Shown: positions 282-59,609, counted from the first letter of the stretch. The stretch: 64,000 bases of DNA from an uncultured Candidatus Saccharibacteria bacterium (GCA_964390265.1 CAYMHI010000004.1:922-64921); one strand, 5' to 3'. The notes: generated by a model not told the origin, from the letters alone. Program-made: numbers and translations.

Positions 282-1142
282 CTATTTTTTGGATTTCTTT
301 TTTGTTTTTTTAGACTTGGCTTTTTTGAGCCATGCCGATTTGCCAATTTCTTTTTGGCTTACTTTGACCTTTTTGGAGAGTCTATAGATTCTAAACTTGA
401 AGTATCCACCTGCGACTAGCCATATACATATAACTGGGCCAACAAACAACCATTGATTAAATATTGAATTGATATCTTCGTATACTAAGAACGAAGACAA
501 TACTAAGACGAGCCCCGCAACTAAATTAATAAGTGCAATGTAGGTAAAGCTGCTTTGCAACTTAGGTTGCTTACGATATTTTTTAACTCCGTATATGTAT
601 ACAAGCGGTGCAGTAACCAACACAACCGCCCCTACTATAATAATGATTTTAGCCTGCATGGGTGAGACCATACTGAATATAGCCGGAAACTTATCAACAA
701 TATTTTGATAACCAAAGGCCATAGCAATAAAAATACCTAGTAGAGCACCGATAATTACTTCTAATGGCTGGTGCCCTAATATTTCGCGCATACGGGTGTA
801 CTCAGCAGCGTTTCTTAAACTACCACTGGTAGATAAGTCGGTTACTAACCTATTTAGGGTTTTAGCATTTTCACCAGCACTTCTTCTCACGCCAAAGCTA
901 TCGTACATAACAATGCCCGCAAAAACTGCTGTAAAACCAAATAGAGGAGATGCCAAGCCCCCATCTATTAGCGCCCAAGTGGCCAAGCTACAAACTACTG
1001 CCGAGTGCACACTCGGCATGCCTCCGCTGGCGTACAAATAGCGCACATTTACATCGCCTTTTATAAAAGCAAGACTAAATTTAATTAGCTGTGCAATAGC
1101 CCATGCGGCAAACGGAACATATAAATATGGTGTTATATTCAT
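282..1142 (-). CDS. divergent PAP2-family (DUF212/YuiD-like) membrane protein with extra C-terminal TM segments and a Lys-rich tail
   Basis: N-terminal ~150 aa carries the YASGGMPSVHSA / multi-TM pattern of the divergent acid-phosphatase family; C-terminal ~130 aa adds TM helices and a KKAKSKKTKKKSKK tail. Confidence 0.55.
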   Translation of the reverse strand: MNITPYLYVPFAAWAIAQLIKFSLAFIKGDVNVRYLYASGGMPSVHSAVVCSLATWALIDGGLASPLFGFTAVFAGIVMYDSFGVRRSAGENAKTLNRLVTDLSTSGSLRNAAEYTRMREILGHQPLEVIIGALLGIFIAMAFGYQNIVDKFPAIFSMVSPMQAKIIIIVGAVVLVTAPLVYIYGVKKYRKQPKLQSSFTYIALINLVAGLVLVLSSFLVYEDINSIFNQWLFVGPVICIWLVAGGYFKFRIYRLSKKVKVSQKEIGKSAWLKKAKSKKTKKKSKK

Positions 1143-1233
1143 TTTATAGCTTACCTACTTATTTTATATATATTTTAACCTGTAACGACAATACTAACAA
1201 GTCGGTAGCATGTAAACGACTAAGCTGGTTAAC

Positions 1234-3432
1234 CTATTTGCTGTATTTCTTACTCAACTGGTATAGTGCCCCGGCCAATGAAACTGCGATGACCCCAAAC
1301 AGCGGGAAGGCGTAATCACTAAATGGTCGATCGACTGGTTTTTTGTATATTAATTGGTCTGCAATGTTAGTACTAGGCTTGATTGCCGAAAGTATATTCT
1401 GCGAACTACTTAATTCTGAATTGACAGGTAGGTTACTGCCAGTCTTTACGGCCAGTGCTAATACTTTTTCTGTGTCTTGGCTGGCAATAAATTGCTGAGC
1501 AGGCTCATCGACTATGTTATTGCTTTCTAATTTTTGACTGGCTTGAGTGTTGCCAGCCGCTGTATCCATACCCAGGCTTCCCACCCAGTTGCCGAATACA
1601 TTTATAAACAATACTCCAAACCAATCCGAGATACTAAAATCTGAATTTATTATATTACCCACATTAACAGCTATTTCGGCATCGCCAGTAGTGGCATCGC
1701 CAGCCTGGGTGTTTCCCGCTACATCTGCGTTACCGCTAGTAGCCGACAACTCCAGATTATTGTTAATTGTGTTTGTAGTATCAGAGTTACTGATAGTATT
1801 GCCAGGGTGGGTCGCTGTAGAGGAGTTTTGCTCTACATCACCCGCTAGAAGCGCACTTGTAGCTCCGACAGGTGCATCCATTATAAGTCCTAGCCAGCTA
1901 CCAAATACATTTACAAAAACTAAAACGGCATTCTTGGCTATTACTTGGCGCCCGGTTAGGTTTAAAAGTGTCAATCTAGTATCTGACTTACCGGTTTTAG
2001 CGTCGCCAGCCGAAGTGTTATTTGAAACATTTGCATTACCACTCTTAGCATCGGTAGATATATTGTTGTTGATAGTTGATAGATCGTTGGTGTTACCAAC
2101 CAAGCTAGAAGTACTATCAGAATCAATGGTGTTATTTGAGCTAGGGCCTGTGTTGCTAATGCTGGCTGAATTGCCTGCTATGTCTTGCGAACCTCCGCTA
2201 GCTAGTAGTTGACTTAAGAAGTCTTTAGAGAATAGAATGTCGCCGTTAAGGTTGCCATAGATATTGATAACCCCAAAAAACGATTTGCCAGAACTAATGT
2301 ACGAGTTTATAAGATTCATTAAGTTTACCAAAACTCTAGCGTCGCCACTCTTTGCGCTACCAGCCTTAGTGTTACCAGTACAACTTTCGGCCATTCTTTC
2401 AGTACCTCCACCTGTTTCACCGCCATTTTGACTGCAACCAACAGTAGCGTCACCACTCCGAGCATCTATAACAACATTGTTATTAATGTCATTATAGTTT
2501 GATGTATTTATCATCAAATTACCATCTTTATTGTCGCTTATAGTGTTATTTGAGTTGGGTCCGGTGCCATTAATACCATATTTAGATCCACCTACACTTT
2601 TATCACTATCGTGATTTGATTTGCCGGTATCAAGCAAAATATCGCCATCAACGTCTCCGTAAAGACTCTGCATAAAGGTTAGCATTTGTCCACCACTAAC
2701 GTTCCAGGCTGAGGCTAAAAGATTGAGAATGTTGGTGAGTACATTAGCATCTCCGCTAATAGCGTCGCCACCTTCGGTGTTATTACCAACCAATGAGTTA
2801 CCAGAAATTGAGTATATATTGAAGTAGTTATTAATTTCTGCCTTAGTGTAAAGATTAAATATACCGTTCGCACTATCACTAGAGTTTACTTGATTATTTG
2901 AAAGTGGTCCTGTATTACTGATACCAACCCGGCCACCACCAGCCAATAATCCAAGCTGTTCGAGTAGACTTGGTGCAATTGGTTTGGGAGTTGGAACATA
3001 CTTGCCTTGTGCAGCATCAAACATCCACTCGGTTGTACTCCAGGTACTTGTGGCTGGGTCATAATAATAATCTGGTTTTTGTTTAGGTCGAGTTTGGTGA
3101 GTTACGGGATCCCAAATATATTGCTCGTTTTCCCAACTGCCGGTATTGGGGTTCTGCACATAAGTATGGGCATCTGCACCATTTGGTTGGGTGGGCCCTG
3201 GAGGTGTTTGAGGGCCGGTTACTGGAGCAACAGGTGTAGGTTCTGTCGGAGGGGTTGGCGCCACACTTGCATCCGAAGTAGTTGTGGTTTGCTCTGGTTC
3301 CGTAGTGTTGGCTATGGTATCGTCAGCGGCCATCACAATACTGGCCGGCTGCACTACTGCCAAAGCAAAGATCATTATGCTGAGAGTAATTTTGGTGATA
3401 ACTATTTGAATGTTTTTTGTGCTAACGATCAT
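1234..3432 (-). CDS. large secreted repeat protein (signal peptide, Pro/Thr-rich linker, tandem ~100-aa 'NTGPxSNN...SGDAxV...NVFGxWxG' modules, C-terminal hydrophobic anchor)
   Basis: Signal peptide ...ASIVMA/AD. Pro/Thr-rich linker TPPTEPTPVAPVTGPQTPPGPTQP. At least 4 modules start with SNTGP(L/N/S)SNN. C-terminal FPLFGVIAVSLAGALYQLSKKYSK. Shares its repeat with the 3545..4114 and 4330..4947 genes. Confidence 0.6.
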   Translation of the reverse strand: MIVSTKNIQIVITKITLSIMIFALAVVQPASIVMAADDTIANTTEPEQTTTTSDASVAPTPPTEPTPVAPVTGPQTPPGPTQPNGADAHTYVQNPNTGSWENEQYIWDPVTHQTRPKQKPDYYYDPATSTWSTTEWMFDAAQGKYVPTPKPIAPSLLEQLGLLAGGGRVGISNTGPLSNNQVNSSDSANGIFNLYTKAEINNYFNIYSISGNSLVGNNTEGGDAISGDANVLTNILNLLASAWNVSGGQMLTFMQSLYGDVDGDILLDTGKSNHDSDKSVGGSKYGINGTGPNSNNTISDNKDGNLMINTSNYNDINNNVVIDARSGDATVGCSQNGGETGGGTERMAESCTGNTKAGSAKSGDARVLVNLMNLINSYISSGKSFFGVINIYGNLNGDILFSKDFLSQLLASGGSQDIAGNSASISNTGPSSNNTIDSDSTSSLVGNTNDLSTINNNISTDAKSGNANVSNNTSAGDAKTGKSDTRLTLLNLTGRQVIAKNAVLVFVNVFGSWLGLIMDAPVGATSALLAGDVEQNSSTATHPGNTISNSDTTNTINNNLELSATSGNADVAGNTQAGDATTGDAEIAVNVGNIINSDFSISDWFGVLFINVFGNWVGSLGMDTAAGNTQASQKLESNNIVDEPAQQFIASQDTEKVLALAVKTGSNLPVNSELSSSQNILSAIKPSTNIADQLIYKKPVDRPFSDYAFPLFGVIAVSLAGALYQLSKKYSK

Positions 3433-3544
3433 TTGCTTGAATCCTTTTTCTAGTATTGATAATAATTTAGATAATTGCTGGCGGGCTTAAGAATCAATAA
3501 ATGATTCTTAAGTACCCTACCAATTTCTCAATTTATACCAAGTT

Positions 3545-4114
3545 CTAGTTTGAAATAGAGCTTGTAGTTGAGAATGTACTTGTGTTACTTACACTTCCTG
3601 AAACGGCAGAACCGCCAGTAGTGTTACCACTAACGTTTGCACTACCACTCGAACCATTTTGGCTGTTTGTGTTAGTCACGCTAACAGTATTAACGTTAGT
3701 TACTACACTGTTGTAAGTGTTGTTGTAGCTAACTTGGTTGTTAGAGTTTGGTCCTGTAACGTTAATGCTTGTGCTGTTAGGAGCCATCGCTGGTCCACTT
3801 ACACCACCTGCATTGCTTACGCTAAACACAGTTGAAGCCATAGCTGCGTTGTTAACACCTCCGCTCATAGCTGATCCACCAGTTGTGTTACCGCTAACGT
3901 TTGCACTACCACTTGTACCGCTTTGGTTGTTGTTATTTACACCAAGTGCAGTATTTGCGTTGGTTTTAACAGATGCCCAAGTGTTGCTTTCAGCAACTTG
4001 GTTGTTTGAGCTAGGCCCAGTTGTACCAATGACCACCGAGCTAGCTGAAACAACTCCTGCTGTTAAGCCTAGAGTAGCTACAGTAACTGCCAATGTTTGT
4101 AATACTTTCTTCAT
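3545..4114 (-). CDS. small secreted Ser/Asn/Thr/Gly-rich repeat protein (two 'TGPxSNNQV...SGSANVSGNTTGGSAxSG' repeats)
   Basis: Signal peptide MKKVLQTLAVTVATLGLTAGVVSAS; AAGGAGG SD upstream; two near-identical internal ~55-aa repeats. Confidence 0.6.
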   Translation of the reverse strand: MKKVLQTLAVTVATLGLTAGVVSASSVVIGTTGPSSNNQVAESNTWASVKTNANTALGVNNNNQSGTSGSANVSGNTTGGSAMSGGVNNAAMASTVFSVSNAGGVSGPAMAPNSTSINVTGPNSNNQVSYNNTYNSVVTNVNTVSVTNTNSQNGSSGSANVSGNTTGGSAVSGSVSNTSTFSTTSSISN

Positions 4115-4329
4115 AATTTTTCACCTCCTTTCAATTTTTTGAGACCTACAGCAATAAAAGCGTCTGTATAATATGCTATTTTGCAATACGATTTTACAGG
4201 CAATCATATTGCGGTAGGTCTCTAGATTTCGGGCTATTGAAACCCGATCATATTAGACTTTCTATAATCTAGTGTGATCGAGCTTCAATAATACCCGATA
4301 GCTTTTATTGACTTGTTAACTTGCGATTT

Positions 4330-4947
4330 TTAGAATTTAACGTATAGTGTACCGGCTTTGTATTTGCTGTAAACATAGGTTGCACCTATTGCGCTTGCAA
4401 AAGCTAAAATGCTAGGAACCCAGCTCCAATTGGTAGTTGATGCTGGTCTTTGACCAATAACACCCGTTCTTGCGTTCATTAAGGCTTTCATTAAGTCGCT
4501 TAGACTTCCACCGCCAGTTTTGGGTAGAGTTGTGACAGATTGACCCAAAGTTGCGACTGAGCCAGCTCCTTCACCACCTGCTCCGGTAATTGCGCTTGGG
4601 TTTTCTGTAACTCCAGCACCCGAGCCACCAACTGCAGGACCGCCGTTGTTTATGCTAACCGCGGTGCTGGTATTGAATGAATTATTTACATTTCCGCTAA
4701 TAGCGTCGCCACCAGTGGTGTTGTCGTTTACATTCGCATTACCACTTGTTCCAGTCTGCACATTGCTAGTTGATACAAATACAGAGTTGGTGTTAGTTTC
4801 GGTCTGAATAAAAGTATTTGTTACTGTACTTATATTTGTGCTTCCAGGGCCAGTATTGGTAATAGTGGTTGTGTCGGCATGCGCTACGCCAGACATGGCC
4901 AAAGGCAGTACCAAGCCGCTTAATAATATTGCTAGTTTATGTTTCAT
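4330..4947 (-). CDS. secreted repeat protein of the same family with an LPKTG-like motif and C-terminal TM plus basic tail
   Basis: Signal peptide ...SGVAHA/D. One TGPGSTN...SGNANVNDNTTGGDAISG repeat. TTLPKTGGGS, then ~30 aa later WVPSILAFASAIGATYVY-SKYK. Confidence 0.55.
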   Translation of the reverse strand: MKHKLAILLSGLVLPLAMSGVAHADTTTITNTGPGSTNISTVTNTFIQTETNTNSVFVSTSNVQTGTSGNANVNDNTTGGDAISGNVNNSFNTSTAVSINNGGPAVGGSGAGVTENPSAITGAGGEGAGSVATLGQSVTTLPKTGGGSLSDLMKALMNARTGVIGQRPASTTNWSWVPSILAFASAIGATYVYSKYKAGTLYVKF

Positions 4948-4956
4948 AATTTCCTC

Positions 4957-5832
4957 CTAAATAATTAATTGTTTTATTTGTATATTTGTTGTTACAAAAA
5001 AGGAGCTTGCAGAATAATATGCAAACTCACTTTTTGTAACAGCAAAAACCATACTCATACTATCTACGTCTGAGCGAGCCGCGTTGCTAAACCCATTCTT
5101 ACGCCAAAACCGCAGAAGCAAACCCATCACAATCAAAGTCAACACTCCAAGCATATGTAGTGCTGCAGATTGTGGCACTCTATCAGCAGAAGAAAATTGT
5201 GCAATTGTGCCCAATGCTGTAATGCTGGCTTCTATAGTTATAAACTGACCGGCCTGAAATACAGCGGCAAACATTCGAAGCACTAGACTAGTACCGTCTA
5301 AAGGTAGATTGTTCGGTACAGGATTAGCACCACTAGAAGCTTGGCTTTGCATAGTATTTGGCAATGCATTGGCACCATCTAAATTGGAGTTGTAAGATGA
5401 AGAGTCTTGATAATATTGCATATAGGCTGGGTAAGAATTGATGTGGTTTGCCTGTGCTGATCGATCAACAGCTTGGTGTGAAGATGGCAAATTGTTACTA
5501 GAACTGTTCTCGGTCACCGACAGCACACCTGCAGTTGTGACAACAGACGAATCATTTGCCTCAACAATGCTGTTGTCTGGCAAATATGACACATTACCAG
5601 CCTGCGTAGATATACTACTAGCGGTAAAAGATTCAATAATAGATTGCTCTGAGGATTGTACAATTGTTTCTGAGCTTTGCTGCGAAACACTGCTCGTCAC
5701 TTGAGTTGATGAGTCGGTGCTATTAACATCATTTTCTGTTTGCGAGGCTGCTAAAGCTTTGCCGCTCAAAGCGAGCAGACAAGCTGAAGCTATTAGCATC
5801 AGAAGCAAAAAACGAGTTGTACGAACTAACAT
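4957..5832 (-). CDS. Ser-rich secreted/membrane-associated low-complexity protein
   Basis: Signal peptide MLVRTTRFLLLMLIASACLLALSGKALAAS; long S/T/Q/N-rich region; hydrophobic segment LHMLGVLTLIVMGLLLRFWRK near the C-terminus. Confidence 0.5.
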   Translation of the reverse strand: MLVRTTRFLLLMLIASACLLALSGKALAASQTENDVNSTDSSTQVTSSVSQQSSETIVQSSEQSIIESFTASSISTQAGNVSYLPDNSIVEANDSSVVTTAGVLSVTENSSSNNLPSSHQAVDRSAQANHINSYPAYMQYYQDSSSYNSNLDGANALPNTMQSQASSGANPVPNNLPLDGTSLVLRMFAAVFQAGQFITIEASITALGTIAQFSSADRVPQSAALHMLGVLTLIVMGLLLRFWRKNGFSNAARSDVDSMSMVFAVTKSEFAYYSASSFFVTTNIQIKQLII

Positions 5833-6103
5833 AAATCACTCCCCAATTAAATTAGTTTACTTGTAGCTTTATTGTTTAAAGTTTTTTGTTGTATATATCT
5901 ATTTTATTTATTTTTAATACTATTATTAAGAAATTTTGAGCTCAACATTTTTGTCTTATAATTTAGTTATACTCCCGCCGTGCAATTACTGTCAATAGTA
6001 TTTTATGTAATTAGTAAAACTAAATCATGACTAACTAAATCATAGACAAATTAGTCAGTAACCGACATATTCTAATTGCGTGCCTATTAGTTAATTGGCA
6101 AAT

Positions 6104-8686
6104 TTATTTTTTAGTATTAGTATTTTTTTTACTATCAGTTTCTAAAGATTCTTTAGATGTTTCTTCGGCCATCTCTTCAGCTTTAACTTTTTGCAGAAGT
6201 GCCACTGAGGCGATTTGATCATCGCCATTTAAACGCATAATTCTAACACCCTGTGTAGCTCGCCCAATTATAGGAATGGCGCTAAGTTTGAGGCGAATCA
6301 CTTGGCCTTGCTTAGAGATCAACAAAACATCGTCGCTCAAGTCAGGAGCTATCCGCACGTCAATAGCTTGGCCGGTTTTGGCTGTAGCTACGCCGGCTTT
6401 AATTCCTACGCCACCACGATTGTGACTGCTAAACTGTTGAGATTTAGTAATCTTGCCATATCCGTTCTCCATCACAACTAGCAGCAATCCCTCTTCTTTA
6501 CCTAACACATCCATACCTACCACAGAGTCGCCGGCTCTTAGTCGTATACCACGCACGCCACGAGTGGCACGACCCATAGGCCGAGCGTCAGCTTCTTTAA
6601 ATCTTATAGCTTGAGCCTTGGCAGTGGAGATAATTACGTCATCGCCGTCGGTGGTTTTCTTCACCCATCTAAGTTGATCGCCAGTATCAAGTTTGATGCA
6701 AATTATTCCGCTTTGGCGAATATTGGCAAAGTCTTCTATTTTGGTTTTCTTTATTACCCCTTTGCTGGTGGTCATAAATAAGAACTGAGTAGGTTCATCT
6801 TTTTGAAGGCTAAGCATAGAGGTAACTTTTTCTTCGGGACCTAGGTTTATTATGTTAACTATAGATTGACCCTTGGCGGTGCGGCTGGCTGGTGGAATCT
6901 CATAACCTTTAAGCTTAAATACACGCCCCAAACTGGTGAAGAATAATACCGTATCGTGCGTTTTACATTGCAATACGTGTTCTACCACATCTTCTTCTTT
7001 GGTGGCCATACCAATCTTGCCTTTACCACCACGCCCCTGGCTTTGATAGGTATCGGCCGAAATACGCTTAACGTAGTTGCCCTTAGTAAGACTTACTACT
7101 ACTTCTTCGTCCGGAATAAGATCTTCATCGCTAAAGTTACCAATTGCTTTTTTGATTATTTGAGTTCGGCGTTTGTCGCCAAATTTTTCTTTTAGCTCAA
7201 TAAGCTCTTCGGAAATTACTTTAAGAATATTTGCTTCGCTACTCAATATTTCTTTGAGCTTGGCCATCACTTTTTGCAACTCATTATACTCATCTTCTAT
7301 TTTCTTACGCTCAAGACCAGCCAATGTACGCAAAGGCATCGCCAAAATGGCATTGGCTTGTAACTCTGAGAGTTTAAATTTGGACATTAAGTTGGTGCGT
7401 GCTTCATCTTGTGTTTCAGATGCTCTAATTGTACTTATTACTTTATCTATCTGGTCTAAAGCGATTCGTAAACCTTCAAGAATGTGAGCCCTAGCTTCAG
7501 CCTTACGTAATTCAAATTCGGTACGACGACGCACCATTACTTTGCGGTGTTCTAGGTAATAACGCAGCACCATCTCAATATTTAGAACGCGAGGCTGAAT
7601 ACCGTCTACCAATGCTAGCATATTGACGTGAAAAGCCGTTTGCATAGGTGTCATTTTATACAATTGGTTGAGAATCTTGGTTGCATAGGCGTCTTTTTTC
7701 AGCTCTATTACTACTCGCACTTCTTCTCTGGCCGACTCATCTCGCAAATCAGAAATGCCAACAATTTTTTTGTCACGCACTAGATCGGCAATTTTTTCTA
7801 CCAGTGTTGCCTTGTTGGTTTGGTAGGGTACCTCGGTGATAATTATTTTCTCTCTACCCTTTTTGTCTTGTTCGATTTCTGCAACAGCCCGCATAACTAT
7901 CGAGCCTTTACCGGTTCCATAAGCGTGAGCAATAGCACCATCGTCAAATATCACCCCGCCGGTAGGGAAGTCGGGGCCTTTAATGATTTTACAAAGGTCA
8001 GCGACAGTTGTGTCTGGATTATCAATAATTGCCAATACACCATCTATTACTTCAGCCATGTTGTGCGTTGGAATGTTGGTTGCCATACCAACAGCAATAC
8101 CTTGTACGCCATTAATTAGTAAATTGGGTACTTTAGCAGGTAATACCTTTGGTTCGTGCTGTGAGCCGTCATAGTTGGGCATGAATTCTACAGTCTCTTT
8201 GTCTATATCTAGCAACATTTCCTCGGCAACACGAGTCATACGTGCTTCGGTATAACGCATAGCGGCAGCACCATCGCCATCCATATTGCCAAAGTTACCC
8301 TGTCCATCAACCGTTGGGTAACGCATTACCCAGTCTTGGGCCATACGTACCATGGAGTCATAGATTGCGGTATCGCCATGAGGGTGATATTTACCAATTA
8401 CTTCACCAACGATGGTGGCAGATTTACGATATTTTACATTATGACGAAGGCCAAGTGTTCCCATAGCATAAAGAATTCGTCTATGTACTGGCTTAAGACC
8501 ATCACGTACATCTGGTAAGGCGCGTGATACAATAACACTCATTGCATACTCAAGATAGCTTTTTTCCATCTCAGACTCTACAGTCTTCGGGGCTATTAGT
8601 CCAAATTCTGTCTTTTGGGGCTCAAAGTTTTGGTCGTCAAAGACTTCAAGTGGTTCTTCAATTGGTGGGTTGGTTTCTTTGCTCAT
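6104..8686 (-). CDS. gyrA: DNA gyrase subunit A
   Basis: DGLKPVHRRILYAM, AAMRYTEARM (QRDR), catalytic Tyr region, C-terminal beta-pinwheel repeats; immediately downstream of gyrB. Confidence 0.97.
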   Translation of the reverse strand: MSKETNPPIEEPLEVFDDQNFEPQKTEFGLIAPKTVESEMEKSYLEYAMSVIVSRALPDVRDGLKPVHRRILYAMGTLGLRHNVKYRKSATIVGEVIGKYHPHGDTAIYDSMVRMAQDWVMRYPTVDGQGNFGNMDGDGAAAMRYTEARMTRVAEEMLLDIDKETVEFMPNYDGSQHEPKVLPAKVPNLLINGVQGIAVGMATNIPTHNMAEVIDGVLAIIDNPDTTVADLCKIIKGPDFPTGGVIFDDGAIAHAYGTGKGSIVMRAVAEIEQDKKGREKIIITEVPYQTNKATLVEKIADLVRDKKIVGISDLRDESAREEVRVVIELKKDAYATKILNQLYKMTPMQTAFHVNMLALVDGIQPRVLNIEMVLRYYLEHRKVMVRRRTEFELRKAEARAHILEGLRIALDQIDKVISTIRASETQDEARTNLMSKFKLSELQANAILAMPLRTLAGLERKKIEDEYNELQKVMAKLKEILSSEANILKVISEELIELKEKFGDKRRTQIIKKAIGNFSDEDLIPDEEVVVSLTKGNYVKRISADTYQSQGRGGKGKIGMATKEEDVVEHVLQCKTHDTVLFFTSLGRVFKLKGYEIPPASRTAKGQSIVNIINLGPEEKVTSMLSLQKDEPTQFLFMTTSKGVIKKTKIEDFANIRQSGIICIKLDTGDQLRWVKKTTDGDDVIISTAKAQAIRFKEADARPMGRATRGVRGIRLRAGDSVVGMDVLGKEEGLLLVVMENGYGKITKSQQFSSHNRGGVGIKAGVATAKTGQAIDVRIAPDLSDDVLLISKQGQVIRLKLSAIPIIGRATQGVRIMRLNGDDQIASVALLQKVKAEEMAEETSKESLETDSKKNTNTKK

Positions 8687-11322: not shown

Positions 11323-11928
11323 CTAAACATCTTCTGGACGATTAAATCTATGATAAATGAACTCAACAAGCATACCTAGTACAGCTCCCACTACTAGAAA
11401 CAGTATGAATGTCATATTCGGAATCACGTAGCCGTAGTAACGCGCACCAATATAGACAATTAATCCAAGGGTTAGCCCCACCACCGAGCCACCAATCAAT
11501 AGAGAAGGACGCATTACTGTCTTACTAGCTACATCGCTAACTTTTTCGACTACCGGATTGTGAACAAACTTTGAAAACGTTCTTGATCGTTTTGGCAATT
11601 GAGCTTGAACTTTCTTAATTTCTTTCTTGTAAACAGCTTTTTTCTCAGCTGCAGTGTAGCTTTCAGGTTTTTTAGCCTCTAGCTCATGCGGTTTGTGCTT
11701 CTCGTGTGACTGTTTGTCTTTATCGGCCTCTGGTTTGAGTTTGAGTTTTTCTTTTTCAGCCTTAAGTACTTTCTCAGCCACGTGGCCCTTGTGCTCTAAC
11801 TCGCTTTTTTTATGGCTTAGCTCAGCTTTATTTGGTTTGGCTTCTTTACGCTTGACTGGCTCAATATCTTTTAGATTGGGCTTTTCAGCACTTGATCCCG
11901 GGTGTTTTTCAATATTTTTTTCAGACAT
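11323..11928 (-). CDS. Lys/Glu-rich protein with C-terminal two-TM anchor
   Basis: Highly charged N-terminal 130 aa (KHKPHELEAKKPESY...), then two TM helices; its start overlaps the stop of the upstream LPXTG gene by 8 nt (translational coupling). Confidence 0.5.
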   Translation of the reverse strand: MSEKNIEKHPGSSAEKPNLKDIEPVKRKEAKPNKAELSHKKSELEHKGHVAEKVLKAEKEKLKLKPEADKDKQSHEKHKPHELEAKKPESYTAAEKKAVYKKEIKKVQAQLPKRSRTFSKFVHNPVVEKVSDVASKTVMRPSLLIGGSVVGLTLGLIVYIGARYYGYVIPNMTFILFLVVGAVLGMLVEFIYHRFNRPEDV

Positions 11929-14266
11929 AAGGGGTTACTCCATCACTTAATGTTTCGACAAGCTCAATTTCTCTTTTTAATAGACGATTTCTAAAGTACA
12001 GATATAGTGAGCTCGCAGCGAAGAATCCAATGAATAGTAGAGGTATAGCTTCTGAGCCAGTCTGAGGCAGCACACCACTCACCATAGTTGTAACAATATT
12101 TGCGCTACACTCAATTCGTTTGGCCGGATTAACATACAATGGAGTCTTTACTAGTTTGCCAAAGAATTCGTCTTGAACCATACAGTCATAATTAGTCGAA
12201 TCGGTAGGCTTATGTGCTATGGTTGGTAGCGGATTTTTTAGAGCTACAGTAAACTCTTTGGATACAAATACCGGGTTGCCATCAACAGGAGAAGGCGGCA
12301 CATCTACAGCTGGCCATATTAATATAGATTGTCCGTCTCGCTGTTCTAATCTAGCTCCACCTGCATCAACCAGGTCGGCATACTCCAGAATGTCAGAAAT
12401 ATTATCCTGAAAAACGAAACCTGTAATTGTAGTGGCGCCGGTATTGCTCATACCTATAGTGTAAGTAAGTTTGTCGCCGCCCCTGGCACGAACATTGTTG
12501 GCATCGGTAGGTTTGCCATCACTAGTAAGGAGGGTAATGTTTCTAACAGTTTTTTGGAATAGCTGGTTTTCAACAGTAATTGTGGCTGTGCAAGTATCGT
12601 TGGAAGATGTTGCATCATTATCGTTAGCCACAACTACAACCGTAGCTGTATAGCGGCCACCGTTATTGTAGGTATGTTGTACAGCCTGCGATAGTTGATT
12701 AGATTGTACGGTCTGCCTATTACCGTCACCAAAGTCAAACCGGTACTCTTTAATAGTAGTATTTTCTGCACTAGATTGTGCCGTCAATGTAGTGATGAGT
12801 GGTGTTGATACCGAACTATTAGGGTTGGCGGTTAGTCTTATGCAACTAAATAACTTGGCGGGTTCTTCACATCTAGGGTCGCCTTGAGGTATACCTGGTC
12901 TACACTCATTAACACCTGTTACAGTAAACGGAGCCCAACAATCTTTAGTGTCTGCAACGGCAACATTATTTTGGTTGTAAACTCTCAATGTAATAAGATA
13001 GTTGCCTGGTTCAGTTCGTCTAAACGAATCGGCATTAAATGATACTGGTGGTTCTCCTACAGGGTCGCGCAGAGTAGTATTAGCATGAACAATCTTGGCC
13101 ACCCCAGGTACAGGTAGGTAGAACTTACCATTCATTTTTATAGTTTGCGCTGTTTCATTTGGAGTCTCTTTGTATAGAGTGTATTCGTATTTGCTTGGTC
13201 TAGGATCAGCACCGGAACCTTCGGTTACTTCAGCTTTGCCGGTCAATACCGGTGTAAATGGTGCCACGCCAGTTGAGCTACCCATTTTAAGGTCTTTACA
13301 TACTAGATCTTTTGGTGCGGCTTTAGGCTGCACCACAATAGTCATCGCACAATTACCGTTGGCGCTACCTGGTGCAATTACTGAAGTTCCACCACTGTTG
13401 TATGAGACCCATAGCCGCACTACAAATGTTCCGGCTTGGTTGAAGGTAAAGTTGCGTACATTAGGGTCTTTAAAATAGCCCGTAGGATTATCGCTAATTC
13501 CATCGGCACGCTTTAGCTCGCCGACCAGCTGACCCAAAGCAGTACCGTCTGGTTTGTAAACACCATAGGCCATATTTACTTTTTCACCAGTAGATACATT
13601 ACTGCCTTTGGCGTAACCTCTATAGCCAACTTCAGCGCCAACTTTTACCGGGCCTGGATTAGTAGCATTTAAATTGTCGCAGATGATTACTTTGGCTGGT
13701 GCTGGTGGGGAGGTAGGTCGTAAAATAATATTGCCACAATCTAGCGCCACACCCCATTCATACCACTGACCAGTAGAAGTATCTTGAATTTTATCTTTGC
13801 CTAATATTACACTCAGACAGCTAGTGTTCCAGCGAGACTCGGCTGGCCCTATATAAATTCCAGGTTGAAACTGAGTAGATCCCCCAAAATTTTCCCTACC
13901 CATCGATAGCCAGCCCTGACCCTTACAGGCCGATCCGGTTGAAGCAGCCTGCATCTTGGCTTGGGTGATCTGCAAACGATTAAATACCTGTTGAATACCA
14001 CCTGGATTTTGGTTCCATACTTTGCTAATTAGAGATGATTTGGTAAATGGCCCGCCCGAGATTAGATCGTTGGCTGAAGATGCATAGCTTGGTTTTGGGG
14101 GAGCTACAAAGGTAATAAACTGAAACAGCAACATACCAATCATTAATACTGCAGCTAGTCGCCTGGTGGCCGTTTCTTTAGATAGTCGTTTAGCATAAAA
14201 CAAAACCTTACTTTTCGATAATGCTCCTGTCGAAAAGCCCGTTACTACATCTCTAAAGTTTTTCAT
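11921..14266 (-). CDS. LPXTG-anchored cell-wall surface protein (sortase substrate)
   Basis: N-terminal signal anchor. Canonical C-terminal sorting signal LPQTGSEAIPLLFIGFFAASSLYLYF-RNRLLKR. Large beta-rich extracellular region with Cys pairs. Confidence 0.7.
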   Translation of the reverse strand: MKNFRDVVTGFSTGALSKSKVLFYAKRLSKETATRRLAAVLMIGMLLFQFITFVAPPKPSYASSANDLISGGPFTKSSLISKVWNQNPGGIQQVFNRLQITQAKMQAASTGSACKGQGWLSMGRENFGGSTQFQPGIYIGPAESRWNTSCLSVILGKDKIQDTSTGQWYEWGVALDCGNIILRPTSPPAPAKVIICDNLNATNPGPVKVGAEVGYRGYAKGSNVSTGEKVNMAYGVYKPDGTALGQLVGELKRADGISDNPTGYFKDPNVRNFTFNQAGTFVVRLWVSYNSGGTSVIAPGSANGNCAMTIVVQPKAAPKDLVCKDLKMGSSTGVAPFTPVLTGKAEVTEGSGADPRPSKYEYTLYKETPNETAQTIKMNGKFYLPVPGVAKIVHANTTLRDPVGEPPVSFNADSFRRTEPGNYLITLRVYNQNNVAVADTKDCWAPFTVTGVNECRPGIPQGDPRCEEPAKLFSCIRLTANPNSSVSTPLITTLTAQSSAENTTIKEYRFDFGDGNRQTVQSNQLSQAVQHTYNNGGRYTATVVVVANDNDATSSNDTCTATITVENQLFQKTVRNITLLTSDGKPTDANNVRARGGDKLTYTIGMSNTGATTITGFVFQDNISDILEYADLVDAGGARLEQRDGQSILIWPAVDVPPSPVDGNPVFVSKEFTVALKNPLPTIAHKPTDSTNYDCMVQDEFFGKLVKTPLYVNPAKRIECSANIVTTMVSGVLPQTGSEAIPLLFIGFFAASSLYLYFRNRLLKREIELVETLSDGVTPYV

Positions 14267-14372
14267 TTTTGTATTCCCCGCCTTAGCTTATATTATGTTA
14301 TTTAACTGCATTATAATATAAAGTGAAGCATAAGCGCAAGCATTTGTTGTTACTTTATTTTTAATACAGTAT

Positions 14373-16874
14373 TTAGCCCACTCGGGAAGGTTGTGGCTCA
14401 GTAGATGTGGCACTTTTTGAGCTACTAATAGCATCGAGGCTGGCTGCTACTTCAGCTTCCACCTCAGCTTTTGGTCGGCTATACTTGCTTCGCGACAGAT
14501 CACGCATAGCAGTTTGAAGCTCAGTATTAATAATTTCTTTATCTACCGGAGGGTAACCACGCATAGAAAATGGAGTTACTGGCTTACCATTAGCAATTAT
14601 TTTGGCGACCGCATAATGATTGGGTATATTGGCAATATCACTAGCGCTAAACTGTGGTTCAAATTGCTTGGCAAGGTACTCGGCATCATCGTTACCGACT
14701 CTATGAATTATCATACTACCTACGTTTCCAAACACGGCGTCGCGTATTTGCTCATCAATTTGCTCAATGTATTGATTAGCCACGGTCAAATTAAAGTGGT
14801 ATTTTCTAGCCTCAGACAATATAGTTGCAAAACTGTCAGTAGCAATATTTTGAAACTCATCTACATATAACCCAAAATCAACACGTTCATGCTCTGGTAT
14901 GTCAGCCCTACTCATAGCTGCTACCTGCAGCTTAATAACAAATATCATGCCTAATAACTTGGCATTCAATTCACCCATAAGGCCTTTACTAAGGTTTACT
15001 ATTAATATTTTATTGTTGTCCATAATGTCGCGAAAGTTGAGAGCCGATTTCTTTTGGCCAATAATATTTCGAAGCATTTCGTTATTGGCTACTGCACCAA
15101 ATTTTGAAGCAAAATAACCCAACATATCAGACTTAGTGCGCGCATCGGTTTGGGCCATTTCGTTTGTCCAAAAAGCTTGTACGGTTGGGTCGGTCAGATA
15201 CTTAAATTTTTTCTTCAGATATTCATCGTCGGTAAATACCCTAGGAACCTCAATATATGAGCCACCCTCAGGATCAGCCATAACCGTCAAAGCGGCATTT
15301 CTAAACCAGTTTTCAAACTGCGGCCCTATCATGCCCTGATGCTGAGGGTCGTATAGCTTATAAAGCATGCTTATTATTTCTTGTACTATAAAGTCTTTTT
15401 GTTCAGGCTTATTGTGATCGTACTCCATAATATTGAGACCCATTGGGTATTCGGTATCGCCAGGTGAAAAATAGATAACGTCTTCAGCACGATTGGCCGG
15501 AATACGACCTAGCAGTCGCTCGGCTTCATCTCCGTTAGGATCAATAAAACAGAAGCCTCGGCCTTCTTTGGCGTCTTGAATCATCAAGTTAGTAAGCAAT
15601 ACAGACTTACCAGTACCAGTTTGTCCAATTATATATATGTGTCTGCGCTTATCATCTTTGGTCAAATATATTGGCGTTTCGTGACCGCCAAAAATATTTA
15701 GGCCAATTCGCATGCCTTCGGTCGGTAAACCAGCTGGGGCAGCCACTTCCTTGGCGGCTTTTCTTTCGATATTAACTGCCGAGCCTACTACTTCGCTTGG
15801 CAAGTGGAATATTGTGGCTAGCTCAACCGAATTCAAAACCAAATCATTCTGGCTGGCCGGGAAAAATCTAAATATAAAATCAGTAGCAACTTTTTGGGGT
15901 TCTTTAGCACTTTTGTATTTAAAACTATTAGCGCCACCTTGACTTAGCTGTGCAAATCCCAAATTAATATCTTGAATAATTACTTTTGACCTTATAGGAT
16001 CATCAGAGCTGGCAATTATTCTTATGCAAGTCTCAAAAGCTGGCGATTTGGCTTTTTGCTCAATCAACTCCGATTTTTTCTGGTCAATTGCATCTGGTTG
16101 TTTGTCGGGTTTGTTCTTGTTGTCAACATCGTCTTTTCTTTTAAAAGGAGCTTTAGCTACATAGCCGGCAAACTCCATTGCCTTACCGGCACCACTATCG
16201 TCTTTTTTATTAGGATCAAGCACCTGTTTAGCTCGCTTTATAGCTTGTTTGGCCCAGTCAGAGCCAGCCGGCCGTATCATTAACTGAATGGCCGCACCTT
16301 CGTGATCTTCAAGATTAGACAGCCCTGCTAACATTCCAGACAAAGCATCACTATCACTATCGCGGTAAGTGTTGATAGGTAAGTAACTCTCCTTGGCTAG
16401 TTGAAGCTCACCACCCTGTACCCCAGCGATTTTACTGGCTTTTGAGAATATATTAATATCTTCGGCTTTTTCTATTTGAATGCCCGTATAGGCCGATGTT
16501 AGCGATTTTTGCACCGCACTCAGTAGCGTTGCCGGCACAGCTATGTAGAAATTAATTTGTTTACCATCAGCGACTATCTCAAAACTAACATATTTTTTAC
16601 CATAAAATTTAGACTTGTCGGTCGCAATTCCCGAGAGCAGATTAAATACGCCCTCCGCTTTAGAAATGTTCTCTTTAATGAGCTCACGGGTATCTCTAGA
16701 CCCATCTTCGGCTTCCTGTGGCGGTAGCTTAACCAGAAGTGGTACCATTTTTAATGATCTTTCTATATCTTTACTACGCCGAGCAACACGTCGATACCAA
16801 AAAAACCCGATGGCACTTATCAGCGCCACAAAGGCCAACATTATTATCAACATAAACATTACAAACTGCGACAT
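14373..16874 (-). CDS. VirB4/TraC-family (AAA_10-like) secretion or conjugation ATPase with N-terminal TM segment
   Basis: 833 aa; N-terminal TM; mid-protein Walker A YIIGQTGTGKS; Walker B LYVDEF; EARKYHFNLTVANQ motif typical of the VirB4/VirD4/TraG clade. The Walker A position (~aa 418 of 833) favours VirB4 over VirD4. Confidence 0.55.
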   Translation of the reverse strand: MSQFVMFMLIIMLAFVALISAIGFFWYRRVARRSKDIERSLKMVPLLVKLPPQEAEDGSRDTRELIKENISKAEGVFNLLSGIATDKSKFYGKKYVSFEIVADGKQINFYIAVPATLLSAVQKSLTSAYTGIQIEKAEDINIFSKASKIAGVQGGELQLAKESYLPINTYRDSDSDALSGMLAGLSNLEDHEGAAIQLMIRPAGSDWAKQAIKRAKQVLDPNKKDDSGAGKAMEFAGYVAKAPFKRKDDVDNKNKPDKQPDAIDQKKSELIEQKAKSPAFETCIRIIASSDDPIRSKVIIQDINLGFAQLSQGGANSFKYKSAKEPQKVATDFIFRFFPASQNDLVLNSVELATIFHLPSEVVGSAVNIERKAAKEVAAPAGLPTEGMRIGLNIFGGHETPIYLTKDDKRRHIYIIGQTGTGKSVLLTNLMIQDAKEGRGFCFIDPNGDEAERLLGRIPANRAEDVIYFSPGDTEYPMGLNIMEYDHNKPEQKDFIVQEIISMLYKLYDPQHQGMIGPQFENWFRNAALTVMADPEGGSYIEVPRVFTDDEYLKKKFKYLTDPTVQAFWTNEMAQTDARTKSDMLGYFASKFGAVANNEMLRNIIGQKKSALNFRDIMDNNKILIVNLSKGLMGELNAKLLGMIFVIKLQVAAMSRADIPEHERVDFGLYVDEFQNIATDSFATILSEARKYHFNLTVANQYIEQIDEQIRDAVFGNVGSMIIHRVGNDDAEYLAKQFEPQFSASDIANIPNHYAVAKIIANGKPVTPFSMRGYPPVDKEIINTELQTAMRDLSRSKYSRPKAEVEAEVAASLDAISSSKSATSTEPQPSRVG

Positions 16875-16882
16875 ACTATCAC

Positions 16883-17338
16883 CTAATTAACATCTAAATT
16901 AAATCGTTTTTTTATATATACTCGGCTCATTTCGTGTTGATGCTCATCCTCTAGTGCTGGGTCGTCCTTATCTTGCTCTATCACATCTTCAGTCTTTTTT
17001 ACCCAAGACTTCTCAATCAAATCGACATCTTCGGCTGGTAACGACTCTAGCGTTTTTGCAAACATATCTCTAGCCGACTTGGCATCGGTGTGAACACTAC
17101 TGGCTTGTGTTGGAGCTGATTGAGAGAGGGTGGTCGAATTAGTCGCAGGTTGATTCGGTATTGGGTTTGGCGAAGTAGTTGCTTGAGGTGCAATTTCGGG
17201 ACGTGGAAGGTTAGGTTGTTGCTCGGTGGTATTTGCTACAGACTCATTAACTTGAGCTACCCCAGGACTAGGCTCAGCCACTGGTGACGCAGCCGGATAA
17301 AATGCATTATTTGGGTTGTGCACGTTAGGAGTATTCAT
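16883..17338 (-). CDS. Pro/Thr/Asn/Gln-rich low-complexity protein
   Basis: 151 aa, no TM; acidic C-terminal part; sits between the L,D-transpeptidase and the VirB4-like ATPase. Confidence 0.4.
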   Translation of the reverse strand: MNTPNVHNPNNAFYPAASPVAEPSPGVAQVNESVANTTEQQPNLPRPEIAPQATTSPNPIPNQPATNSTTLSQSAPTQASSVHTDAKSARDMFAKTLESLPAEDVDLIEKSWVKKTEDVIEQDKDDPALEDEHQHEMSRVYIKKRFNLDVN

Positions 17339-17371
17339 AATAATTATTATACCAGTTATGGTTGGTTCGGA

Positions 17372-18850
17372 CTAGCTGTGAATCCAAACTGGGGTACCAA
17401 TATTAACCCAACCGAATAAGAAAGCAGCCGAGCTTTTGGGCATATTAACACAACCATGACTTCCGCCATTAATATAGTCTTGGCCTCCAAAGCTAGATCG
17501 CCAATCAGCATCATGAAACCCTGCGCCCCCATTAAAGGGCATCCAATAATCGACAAACACGTTGTAACTCCATCCATACTGACTGCCATTTAGATAGCGA
17601 CTTCTTTGTTTAGAATAGATAGAGAATAGTCCTGTTTGAGTACCAAACCCATAGCCAGATGCTCCGCTTGTTACCGGAGTAGAGAAGATTACTTGATTGT
17701 CTTGATAAGCCCACAGGCGTTGTTGGCTCAAATTTACCTCTATATAAGTACCATAATCTATACCAGCTGTACGATTGGTTTCGGTTTTATAGGCCACCGG
17801 ACTGGCTGAAAGATTTACCGAGATATCTTTATTGTCTCTCAGGCCATTTACGATCGCGTCTATAGCTACCTGCTGGTTAATTGATCGGCCGTCTTTTCCT
17901 TCTTGTTCTACCGAAGATACGCCATTTCTAATATTGATCTTTTTATTAGTTGGCGCAATATTAATTTGGTTGGCAACACTCTGTACATAGCCAGATACCT
18001 GTTCTGGCGAAACACTAGCTTGCAAATGTAATTTACCATCACTACCAACAACCTCGCTAAAAACTATCATATGACCTATGGCGTTACTATCGGCGACATA
18101 TTTTTTACCTTCAAACTCCATAGATACCGATCTGGATAGTATTGTCTCAGCTTGGGTTTTTGCATCATTGGTGTCTGCAGCTAATATTTCAGCCTTCACG
18201 GTTTGGGGTTCTAAATATAAGTTCTGATCCTTTGCATCTTGCAAAGAAGTAGCGATTATTCTAGTCAAATATTTTTGATCTACTCTTAATCCGTCTTTAT
18301 CGGGGACAATTTGCACTATCCCGTTTTCAACCTTCAGTGTGGCATTTTGAGCCTTATAGCCTACCGATCCAATAATTGAATCGGTAAAACTTTTTAGCTT
18401 AACCAAGTCTACATCGTAAGCATAACCTATCTGACCCCTCTCGCCAATTGCTATTGTATTTAATAAAGCCAACGACTTACCGTGGCCCACCTGGTAGGCA
18501 GTATCGACAGTAGTTGGTATATCATAGCTAGCACCTAACTCATCGCTAGTAACAGTAAATACTTTTTCACCCACCTTAACAGTAAAAGTGCGTTGAAGCT
18601 TTTGACTATTTAAGTAATCAAGGGTTTCTTTTCTAGACAAAAAACTAACGTCATTGCCGGCTATCGACACTCCGGGCGCCATACGGCCCATAGTGGTGGC
18701 TGAAATAAATAGCTCTATAAAACAAAATATTAGTATCAAACTTATTATTAGAAAGTTTATTCTTGCAGTTTTGCTCGGCTTCATACCAGATTGAGACATA
18801 AATCTAGGTAAATGCAGCCAGTGCTTGTGCGGTTCGGTTTTATTTTTCAT
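17372..18850 (-). CDS. membrane-anchored L,D-transpeptidase (YkuD domain)
   Basis: N-terminal TM; C-terminal YkuD catalytic motif ...GGSHGCVNMPKSSAAFLFGWVNIGTPVWIHS (His/Cys active site). Confidence 0.7.
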   Translation of the reverse strand: MKNKTEPHKHWLHLPRFMSQSGMKPSKTARINFLIISLILIFCFIELFISATTMGRMAPGVSIAGNDVSFLSRKETLDYLNSQKLQRTFTVKVGEKVFTVTSDELGASYDIPTTVDTAYQVGHGKSLALLNTIAIGERGQIGYAYDVDLVKLKSFTDSIIGSVGYKAQNATLKVENGIVQIVPDKDGLRVDQKYLTRIIATSLQDAKDQNLYLEPQTVKAEILAADTNDAKTQAETILSRSVSMEFEGKKYVADSNAIGHMIVFSEVVGSDGKLHLQASVSPEQVSGYVQSVANQINIAPTNKKINIRNGVSSVEQEGKDGRSINQQVAIDAIVNGLRDNKDISVNLSASPVAYKTETNRTAGIDYGTYIEVNLSQQRLWAYQDNQVIFSTPVTSGASGYGFGTQTGLFSIYSKQRSRYLNGSQYGWSYNVFVDYWMPFNGGAGFHDADWRSSFGGQDYINGGSHGCVNMPKSSAAFLFGWVNIGTPVWIHS

Positions 18851-21727: not shown

Positions 21728-21731
21728 GTTT

Positions 21732-22724
21732 TTAAAACTGCTCCAAAAAGTTAAATTGGGGTCGCCACAGTTCTCGAAGATCATTGAGTCCATATTTTAT
21801 TACTGCAAAGCGCTCAGCGCCCCAACCGAATGCAAAACCAGAATACTTGTCGGCATCAATACCGCCATTTTTTAATACTCGAGGGTGCACCATGCCTGCT
21901 CCGCCTAGCTCTAACCACTTGCCATTGTAGCGACAATCTAGCTCCACTGAGGGCTCTGTATATGGAAAGTAGCTGGCTCGAAATCTAATATCAACATCCG
22001 GGCCTAATAAACTCCTTACTACTCTCAATAATGTACCTTTCAAGTCAGACATAGCCACCCCCTCTCCTACTACTAGCCCCTCTACTTGGTTGAATATCCA
22101 TGCGTGAGTAGCGTCTTCGTCTTCATTTCTAAATACTCTACCAGGTACAATTATTTTAAATGGTGGCTTGTTTTTCTCCATAAATCGAACCTGCATACCA
22201 GATGTATGAGATCTAGGTAAAAGGTTCATTTTGCCGTTATCGATATAAAAAGTGTCCTGCATATCCCTAGCCGGGTGCGACGCAGGCATATTCAACGCTT
22301 CAAAATTATACCAATCAGTCTCAATTTCTGGACTATCAACAATTGCAAAACCTAGCTCGGTAAATACTTGGTAGGTCTGCTCTAGAACCATACTTGTAGG
22401 ATGTATATGACCATAGTCCTGGCCAAAAGCATTGGTAGTTGCACTTAAGTCTAGCGGCTTAAATTTTGATGAAGTCAAAACTCTCACTTTTGCAGAATTA
22501 TAAAGTTCCTCTAATGCACTTCGCACATCGTTAAGCCGCTTTCCGTTCAATGCCCTATCTTTTTGCGACATGTTCTTAAGCTCTTTTAGGTCCATTACGA
22601 TGTGGCTTTTACCAGATAAATATGTAGCCTTAGCCGCATCTAACTGCTGTTTATTTTTTGCATTAAAAAACTGGCTTTGGGCTTGTTTTAAATAATTTGA
22701 TGATAAAGATGGTAATTTATTCAT
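21732..22724 (-). CDS. pheS: phenylalanine--tRNA ligase alpha subunit
   Basis: Class II motifs: FRNEDEDATHAWIFNQVEG, FPYTEPSVELD, GWGAERFA. Confidence 0.93.
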   Translation of the reverse strand: MNKLPSLSSNYLKQAQSQFFNAKNKQQLDAAKATYLSGKSHIVMDLKELKNMSQKDRALNGKRLNDVRSALEELYNSAKVRVLTSSKFKPLDLSATTNAFGQDYGHIHPTSMVLEQTYQVFTELGFAIVDSPEIETDWYNFEALNMPASHPARDMQDTFYIDNGKMNLLPRSHTSGMQVRFMEKNKPPFKIIVPGRVFRNEDEDATHAWIFNQVEGLVVGEGVAMSDLKGTLLRVVRSLLGPDVDIRFRASYFPYTEPSVELDCRYNGKWLELGGAGMVHPRVLKNGGIDADKYSGFAFGWGAERFAVIKYGLNDLRELWRPQFNFLEQF

Positions 22725-59546: not shown

Positions 59547-59609
59547 ATTTTGCTTACAACTTACTTAGTTATTATAACAAAATACTCTCTTTGACTGAGA
59601 GTATTTGTT

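Follow-up and report, generated by a model that had tools for sequence, protein, structure and literature searches.

A 64,000-nucleotide stretch of DNA from an uncultured Candidatus Saccharibacteria bacterium (GCA_964390265.1 CAYMHI010000004.1:922-64921; hereafter the window) carries three tandem genes for secreted proteins of 732, 189 and 205 residues. All three proteins are built on a repeat of about 75 residues that is rich in Asn, Thr, Gly and Ser. Alignments and profile searches establish this repeat as a true homologous domain, present in one copy in the 205-residue protein, two in the 189-residue protein and four in the 732-residue protein, and we refer to these as the one-unit, two-unit and four-unit proteins. 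With slightly better than even confidence, we read the three genes as a conserved cell-envelope module of Saccharibacteria, whose paralogous products share a new all-β unit and would co-assemble on the cell surface. The ends of the proteins suggest that one new domain exists in three anchoring states: attached to the wall, held in the membrane, and free. Saccharibacteria and other bacteria of the Candidate Phyla Radiation (CPR) spend their lives attached to host bacteria, and their surface proteins for the most part lack annotation.

The repeat unit

The open reading frames (ORFs) of the repeat proteins lie on the minus strand at 1234..3432 (four-unit), 3545..4114 (two-unit) and 4330..4947 (one-unit), as given in the initial annotation of this DNA, and each is supported by its matches to a profile of the unit. 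With a fourth ORF, for a 291-residue Ser-rich membrane protein (4957..5832, minus strand), they make up a run of four co-directional minus-strand genes (positions 282..8686 with the flanking genes) between gyrA (6104..8686) and a DUF212/divergent-PAP2 gene (282..1142). Two motifs mark the unit. A scan placed TGPxSxN at residues 32 and 120 of the two-unit protein, residue 32 of the one-unit protein and residues 174, 290 and 428 of the four-unit protein. It placed NTxxGxAxSG at residues 76 and 164 of the two-unit protein, residue 76 of the one-unit protein and residues 218, 354, 472 and 574 of the four-unit protein. The two copies first noticed in the 189-residue protein and the single copy in the 205-residue protein are therefore confirmed. 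For the large protein, at least four extended copies had been claimed; four units are there, with the TGP motif in three of them and missing from the fourth.

The unit is Cys-free and polar, and Smith-Waterman scores between copies were judged against composition-preserving shuffles. The similarity stands above what composition gives: the two units of the 189-residue protein score z=19.7 against each other, units of the 189- and 205-residue proteins z=13-15, and the four repeats of the 732-residue protein z=11.8-19 among themselves. Between small-protein and large-protein units the scores are z=1.8-9.8. A profile made from alignment A3, which contains 62 units, matched the two-unit protein with independent E-values of 1.5e-21 and 8.1e-24 and the one-unit protein with 1.5e-19, and it also matched all four repeats of the large protein. 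In the six translated frames of the window, the profile found no match outside these three proteins.

That the likeness is an artefact of Asn, Ser, Thr and Gly composition, or that the ORFs are not genes, is hardly credible. Such an explanation would draw on the make-up of the 189-residue protein, 62% of which is Ser, Asn, Thr and Gly, and on the long antisense ORFs that overlap all three repeat genes. The alignment scores, which exceed the shuffles by 6-20 SD, and the conservation of the family refute it. Thirteen columns are invariant across 108 homologues of the 189-residue protein, hundreds of homologues share the same length and architecture, gene order is kept in 81 of 85 loci, and column pairs within the unit coevolve.

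The family is large, and Saccharibacteria supply most of it. Of 1.84 billion cluster representatives, 1,878 matched the unit profile at E≤1e-3, and 1,134 of them did so at E≤1e-10. The matching proteins carry two, three, four or six units and include a four-unit type of about 700 residues; ten unit-bearing proteins of odd architecture had no Pfam domain. The 189-residue protein has 225 homologues, mostly of 190-200 residues with two units, and some of about 285 residues with three. For the 732-residue protein there are at least 736 homologues of 650-800 residues, many at E~1e-100 and about 40% identity, and precomputed annotation gave no Pfam domain among the 120 large-protein homologues listed, nor among the homologues listed for the small proteins. 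When one genome per GTDB species was scanned, relatives of the large protein turned up in 239 species-level genomes or loci, nearly all titled Saccharibacteria, Saccharimonadales or Saccharimonadia. Where large-protein homologues have names at all, they are called "hypothetical" and assigned to Candidatus Saccharibacteria or Saccharimonadales.

The repeat had been said to match no named family, and this was borne out in Pfam, NCBIfam, PHROGs and the sequences of the PDB. None of the four proteins of the cluster had a match in Pfam, NCBIfam or PHROGs. At a Pfam threshold of E≤1, the three repeat proteins returned nothing except a chance DUF7096 match at E=0.14, and alignments A1 and A2, used as profiles against PDB sequences, gave only chance matches (E 0.065-0.8). 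We found no description of this repeat family in the literature, where the nearest work is a 2026 preprint on the Pam pili of CPR bacteria (bioRxiv 10.64898/2026.03.03.709456). The exact 189-residue sequence is absent from a collection of 15 billion proteins in which the 732- and 205-residue sequences are both present. Its gene was probably missed or called differently there, perhaps on account of an antisense ORF of 134 residues (3738..4142, plus strand) that overlaps it.

Anchoring, structure and expression

All three proteins have Sec-type N-termini, in keeping with the signal peptides first assigned to them. The accompanying claim that the proteins end in hydrophobic anchors holds for the 205- and 732-residue proteins and fails for the 189-residue protein, which ends at an Asn. 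In that two-unit protein a signal peptide (residues 1-24) is followed by units at residues 27-104 and 115-189, and the chain closes with SSISN, without a hydrophobic anchor; once mature, the protein contains hardly any Lys or Arg. Its homologues agree: 106 of 108 have the C-terminal Asn and none of the 108 has a C-terminal hydrophobic or transmembrane segment. Two other two-unit proteins, P0320 and P0359, carry a long Cys/His/Pro-rich C-terminal extension without a Pfam match, which may bind metal.

The one-unit protein is a candidate sortase substrate. Its signal peptide, placed by hydropathy and sequence inspection at MKHKLAILLSGLVLPLAMSGVAHA/DT, leads into the unit (residues 27-103), a Gly/Ala linker, LPKTG (residues 141-145; nucleotides 4513-4527, minus strand), an insert of 31 residues, a hydrophobic segment (residues 177-194) and the basic tail KYKAGTLYVKF. 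The LPKTG motif had been described as preceding a hydrophobic anchor; it is present, but the conserved 31-residue insert stands between the two. LP[KR]TGG is conserved in 16 close homologues, and more distant ones have canonical sorting signals (alignment A4). Sortase-driven pilus polymerisation is unlikely, because the mature one-unit protein contains no Lys. Three one-unit proteins from other loci (L020 10817..11338, L053 10604..11119 and L063 9750..10301) lack LPXTG. They have in common a PVG(A/G)V(A/H)AG motif just ahead of the C-terminal hydrophobic segment, and this motif may be a different sorting signal.

The four-unit protein was modelled by AlphaFold2 (AF2) at a mean predicted local distance difference test (pLDDT) score of 68.7, with repeat cores above 90. 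The model begins with a helix at residues 5-27, a putative signal or anchor, and a disordered Pro/Thr region at residues 28-78. Next comes an aromatic-rich β-hairpin domain (2953..3198, minus strand; residues 79-160), delimited by the conserved columns of alignment A2 and by AF2 strands at residues 105-151 (pLDDT 62-88). This domain is the best conserved part of the large-protein family, with P83, W107, Y122 and W131 invariant in A2, and it has no Pfam match; a ligand- or glycan-binding role would suit it. Four extended units, placed by AF2 and the unit profile, occupy residues 169-630. They are followed by a disordered stalk (residues 632-699) and by a C-terminal transmembrane helix with a basic KKYSK tail (1237..1320, minus strand; residues 705-732), seen as an AF2 helix at residues 705-731 and as a hydropathy of 1.73 over 19 residues.

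The extended units, all on the minus strand, differ among themselves, and each has two hydrophobic strands that the small proteins do not have. Repeat 1 (2581..2928, residues 169-284; independent E-value 4.9e-11, repeat-versus-repeat z=11.8-14) is the unit plus the hydrophobic strands NILNLL...LYGDVDGDILL. In repeat 2 (2167..2580, residues 285-422), the profile match is split into a main part (1.2e-5) and a fragment, and the unit is interrupted by a lineage-specific insertion, GCSQNGGETGGGTERMAESC (2377..2436, residues 333-352). The insertion holds the only two Cys residues of the protein and may be a disulfide-closed loop. Repeat 3 (1843..2166, residues 423-530) has a profile match at 8e-13 and an AF2 core at pLDDT 89-96. 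Repeat 4 (1543..1842, residues 531-630), which is the one without TGP, matches from profile position 16 onwards (5.2e-6).

Taken by itself, the two-unit protein was predicted by AF2 as β structure only, at pLDDT 64.7 in the best model and 38-49 in the other four. The extended units of the large protein, which have the extra hydrophobic strands, were modelled with confidence (pLDDT above 90). The low confidence for the polar two-unit protein alone would fit a subunit that needs partners. Mean-field direct coupling analysis of 716 non-redundant units, which are only pseudo-independent where they come from the same proteins, gave an antiparallel ladder with i+j of about 101 over positions 26-75 (pairs 47-53, 45-56, 43-59, 40-61, 38-63, 32-69, 30-71, 28-75 and 26-74). 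The second half of the unit would therefore form a long strand-turn-strand whose turn is NTTGG, and the TGP motif (positions 5-8) couples to this turn (positions 49-52). The ladder couplings occur on the conserved face, where Asn, Val, Ala and Gly alternate, and not on the variable face, which differs greatly between species. This one-sidedness is compatible with a β-arch as well as with a hairpin that exposes one of its faces.

Known folds offered no counterpart. Foldseek gave no match at E≤0.001 for either AF2 model against the PDB or for the large model against BFVD; β-solenoids, including FapC and CsgA, headed the PDB lists without significance (E≥2.6, template modelling score about 0.05). 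A β-solenoid had been one structure to look for in this repeat, and neither a confident AF2 solenoid nor a significant β-helix fold or profile match came to light.

Upstream signals differ between the two adjacent genes. The two-unit gene is preceded by a perfect AAGGAGGTG Shine-Dalgarno site, and the four-unit gene has a weak ribosome-binding site. The 112-bp spacer between them contains a stem-loop on the minus strand (3462..3536; arms of 35 nt at 3462-3496 and 3502-3536), detected as an inverted repeat and by RNA folding, with a minimum free energy of -29.8 kcal/mol (z=-3.7) and no T-run after it. Small-to-large spacers fold in this way in many loci: across 80 of them the median z is -2.68 and 66% fall below -2, against a median of -0.74 and 26% for 90 control co-directional spacers. 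The stem-loop is probably an attenuator or an mRNA-stabilising hairpin, and the spacer structure and the strong ribosome-binding site fit, as indirect signs, a higher output of the two-unit protein.

Genomic neighbourhood

Synteny was followed in 85 loci, in which ORFs were called mechanically and scanned with the unit profile. In 81 of the 85 loci, the four-unit gene is immediately preceded on its own strand by a two-unit gene of about 195 codons, with a median gap of 117 bp (range 9-225 bp). The two-unit and four-unit genes are an almost invariant adjacent pair, and the genes of the module stay together across a clade of the rank of an order. One-unit genes (about 170-220 residues) are present in 32 loci: 27 of 32 encode LPXT[GASN] with a hydrophobic segment and a basic tail, and 21 of 32 have a sortase gene (PF04203) at a distance of 5-112 bp. 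The counts of one-unit and sortase genes are lower bounds, as flanks extended at most 8 kb. None of the NCBIfam sortase classes has a cut-off that these neighbouring sortases reach. In the clade of the window (L006, L007, L008 and L012), the one-unit gene immediately precedes the two-unit gene, which is also the order in the window.

Several other genes recur around the pair. A ~180-residue N-anchored Ser/Thr-rich protein is encoded directly upstream of the two-unit gene in 24 loci, a GT2 membrane glycosyltransferase occurs in 19, a Crp-family regulator in 14, a DUF212/PAP2 gene in 11 and a PrsA/SurA-like isomerase in six; L,D-transpeptidase and LytR-family genes are also recurrent nearby. The glycosyltransferase, DUF212/PAP2 and isomerase genes are envelope genes, in keeping with an envelope module. 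Giant NosD/Beta_helix repeat proteins of more than 2,600 residues are encoded divergently, just upstream of the small/large pair, in L001 (1..7363) and L004 (1..6418).

In the window, the gene for the 291-residue protein lies 9 bp upstream of the one-unit gene. The protein has no repeat unit, and L006 and L007 conserve its C-terminal half at the equivalent place. In the lineage of the window it sits in the slot of a possible fourth component. The ~180-residue protein found in the 24 other loci is a different one, and no homology to the 291-residue protein was found for the ~170-residue upstream gene of other loci.

The initial annotation had placed the cluster directly downstream of gyrA and taken constitutive expression from this. 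That argument is weak: the gene for the 291-residue protein intervenes, and the 271-bp gap that follows gyrA contains a terminator-like hairpin and a promoter-like site, so read-through from gyrA cannot safely be assumed. Further along the window, the minus strand of 11323..18850 encodes a 201-residue unknown protein, a 781-residue PKD/DUF11 surface protein, a TraG/VirD4-like coupling protein, a 151-residue unknown protein and a YkuD L,D-transpeptidase with PG_binding_4. The TraG-like gene, the DUF11 protein, the unknown protein of about 200 residues, gyrB, gyrA and PAP2 correspond to SEML1_0142-0147 of the cultivated Southlakia epibionticum, with the DUF11 and ~200-residue genes in a different relative order and some strands differing. 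Because the flanking run corresponds in this way, the four-gene cluster looks inserted between gyrA and PAP2.

Three features elsewhere in the window are recorded here for their own sake. The phenylalanyl-tRNA synthetase β chain (961 residues; 18908..21793, minus strand) has an NlpC/P60 domain of the peptidoglycan-hydrolase type at residues 469-554 (PF00877, E=2.4e-12), an unusual fusion in which the extra domain is inserted between B3_4 and B5. A transfer-messenger RNA with the tag ANTLMRNLVNAVRTPSFAPAYA lies at 41790..42179 (minus strand), and a bacterial class A RNase P RNA at 59608..59998 (minus strand). A search of all 64 kb revealed no tRNA gene.

Assembly models and known surface systems

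A role in a surface structure, as initially proposed, is the best reading of the anchors and the gene neighbourhood. We suggest the following sequence of events. After Sec export, a sortase would join the one-unit protein to peptidoglycan, with the Gly/Ala segment as a flexible linker. The four-unit protein would be kept in the membrane on its disordered stalk of about 70 residues, with the folded units and the aromatic-rich tip directed outward. The two-unit protein would be the released subunit, and the more abundant one, because its gene has the strong ribosome-binding site and a conserved stem-loop stands ahead of the large gene. This free subunit would dock on the anchored units through the conserved Asn/Val/Ala face, and the outcome would be a surface layer or fibre tied to the wall as well as to the membrane. 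The assembly might take the form of a fibre, a sheet or a closed complex.

Several observations count against a co-assembling envelope module. Paralogy and synteny are what link the three proteins to one another, and their expression, location and assembly are all read from sequence. The one-unit gene occurs in only 32 of the 85 loci, a lower bound with flanks of at most 8 kb. A tblastn search found no sortase gene within the 64-kb window, and in the clade of the window LP[KR]TGG is followed by a conserved segment of about 30 residues ahead of the hydrophobic stretch, which is atypical. Only 74 of 116 large-protein homologues pass a strict test for a C-terminal transmembrane segment. The stem-loop could be a mere boundary between separate transcription units. 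Finally, the annotation tables of S. epibionticum have the PAP2 gene directly following gyrA, so the cluster is absent from this site and the system is not universal.

Two other accounts of the proteins have to be weighed against this reading, and we consider both unlikely. In the first, the two-unit protein is a functional amyloid of the curli, Fap or chaplin type that polymerises in a cross-β form, with the anchored paralogues as nucleators and tethers; CsgB nucleates and tethers curli, and sortase-anchored long chaplins do so in Streptomyces. The imperfect repeats rich in Asn, Gln, Gly, Ser and Ala, the secreted free subunit, and the anchored and free paralogues that mirror long and short chaplins all speak for such an amyloid. 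Couplings confined to the conserved face are compatible with β-arches, the AF2 monomer model is of low confidence, and FapC and CsgA are among the solenoids that top the non-significant Foldseek lists. However, a template modelling score of about 0.05 at E≥2.6 is no match, no Curlin_rpt, Chaplin or other Pfam family matched at E≤1, and the unit of about 75 residues compares with repeats of about 20 in curli, 35 in Fap and 40 in chaplins. The same unit is confidently folded in the AF2 model of the large protein. The two-unit protein also hardly varies in length and ends exactly at its C-terminal Asn, which suggests that its fold is defined, globular or oligomeric, and not an open-ended solenoid.

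The other account, to which we give a similarly low weight, is a non-polymeric scaffold or ligand-binding set. Lectin-like or wall-binding units, acting separately or as a closed complex, would engage wall polysaccharide, exopolysaccharide or the host surface in an epibiotic lifestyle. The strong conservation of the aromatic-rich tip domain points this way, as do the recurrent GT2 synthase, PAP2, L,D-transpeptidase and LytR-family genes, and the variable face of the unit is as expected of exposed surfaces. Yet no known family of carbohydrate-binding, SLH, LysM or cell-wall-binding domains resembles the unit, and this account leaves unexplained both the almost obligate pairing of two-unit and four-unit genes and the presence of one unit in three anchoring states.

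Returning to the envelope module, a more specific version of it can be put forward tentatively, though we think it rather improbable as it stands. The module might add a third kind of surface polymer to the type IV pili and Pam pili of CPR bacteria, one in which the two-unit protein polymerises through the new β-arch or hairpin unit, the four-unit membrane protein acts as template and the sortase substrate ties the polymer to peptidoglycan. If true, this would be the logic of curli and chaplins in a monoderm form, with an unrelated fold and restricted to Saccharibacteria and relatives. The module is in any case a candidate envelope structure that is conserved in at least 239 species-level genomes, and its unit calls for definition as a new domain family. 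The one-unit protein and its own sortase, found together in many genomes, are a natural substrate pair for studies of wall anchoring in CPR bacteria.

Some known systems were set aside. The proteins have neither a class III signal nor the N-terminal hydrophobic helix motif of type IV pilins, no PHROG or BFVD match relates them to phage tail fibres, and the published archaeal sheath amyloid is an unrelated system. Pfam and NCBIfam scans found no SLH, CW_binding, LysM or other wall-binding domain. The resemblance to curlin and chaplin subunits noted at first survives at the level of architecture, as an anchored paralogue beside a free multi-repeat paralogue, and not as family membership, given a unit of about 75 residues and no Pfam match at E≤1.

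Curli (CsgA/CsgB) and Fap (FapC/FapB) also combine imperfect repeats rich in Asn, Gln, Gly, Ser and Ala with a major subunit and a cell-associated paralogue encoded side by side. Their repeats are 3-4 times shorter, and their diderm secretion systems (CsgG, FapF) are absent here. Membership of the Curlin repeat family (PF07012) was rejected, with no profile match and a unit of about 75 residues against curlin repeats of about 20 with the pattern Sx5QxGxGNxAx3Q; csgDEFG-type genes are not among the recurrent neighbours (sortase, GT2, PAP2, Crp-family regulator and PrsA-like isomerase). The one-unit protein resembles Gram-positive LPXTG substrates in its signal peptide, LPKTG, hydrophobic segment and basic tail, and in the sortase gene that adjoins it in 21 related loci. 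It differs from them in the 31-residue segment after LPKTG in the clade of the window and in neighbouring sortases that lie outside the NCBIfam classes.

The Pam pili (PamA/PamB) of the saccharibacterium Mycosynbacter amalyticus, found by cryo-electron microscopy, are restricted to CPR bacteria and prevalent in Saccharimonadia (bioRxiv 10.64898/2026.03.03.709456). Pam pilins are two-domain Ig-like proteins of 39-55 kDa with Cys pairs and donor-strand exchange, served by membrane-anchored PapD-like chaperones and encoded near ATP synthase genes (bioRxiv 10.64898/2026.03.03.709456). The proteome table of the same preprint ranks a 71.6-kDa hypothetical protein, QHN42381.1, 29th in abundance (bioRxiv 10.64898/2026.03.03.709456). 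This protein could be a homologue of the 732-residue protein. Like the Pam pili, the module would be a CPR surface structure made from Sec-exported, formerly "hypothetical" proteins, and the Pam pili are a precedent for such proteins being major lineage-specific surface structures. Identity with Pam pilins was rejected on size, composition, Cys content and gene context, by which the description of Pam sets them apart; the proteins studied here are instead Asn/Thr/Gly-rich repeat proteins encoded next to gyrBA/PAP2 or a sortase gene.

The chaplins are the nearest architectural analogue, by analogy only. Long chaplins (ChpA-C) with a sortase signal and short chaplins (ChpD-H), which are secreted, jointly form a surface layer in Streptomyces. 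Membership of the Chaplin family (PF03777) was rejected, with no Pfam match and a polar, Cys-free unit of about 75 residues, whereas the chaplin domain has about 40 residues, is hydrophobic and contains Cys. The module described here also has an additional four-unit, membrane-anchored protein. What the two systems share is a set of paralogous secreted proteins with differing copy numbers of one small domain, some sortase-anchored and others free, here as the one-unit LPXTG form and the free two-unit form.

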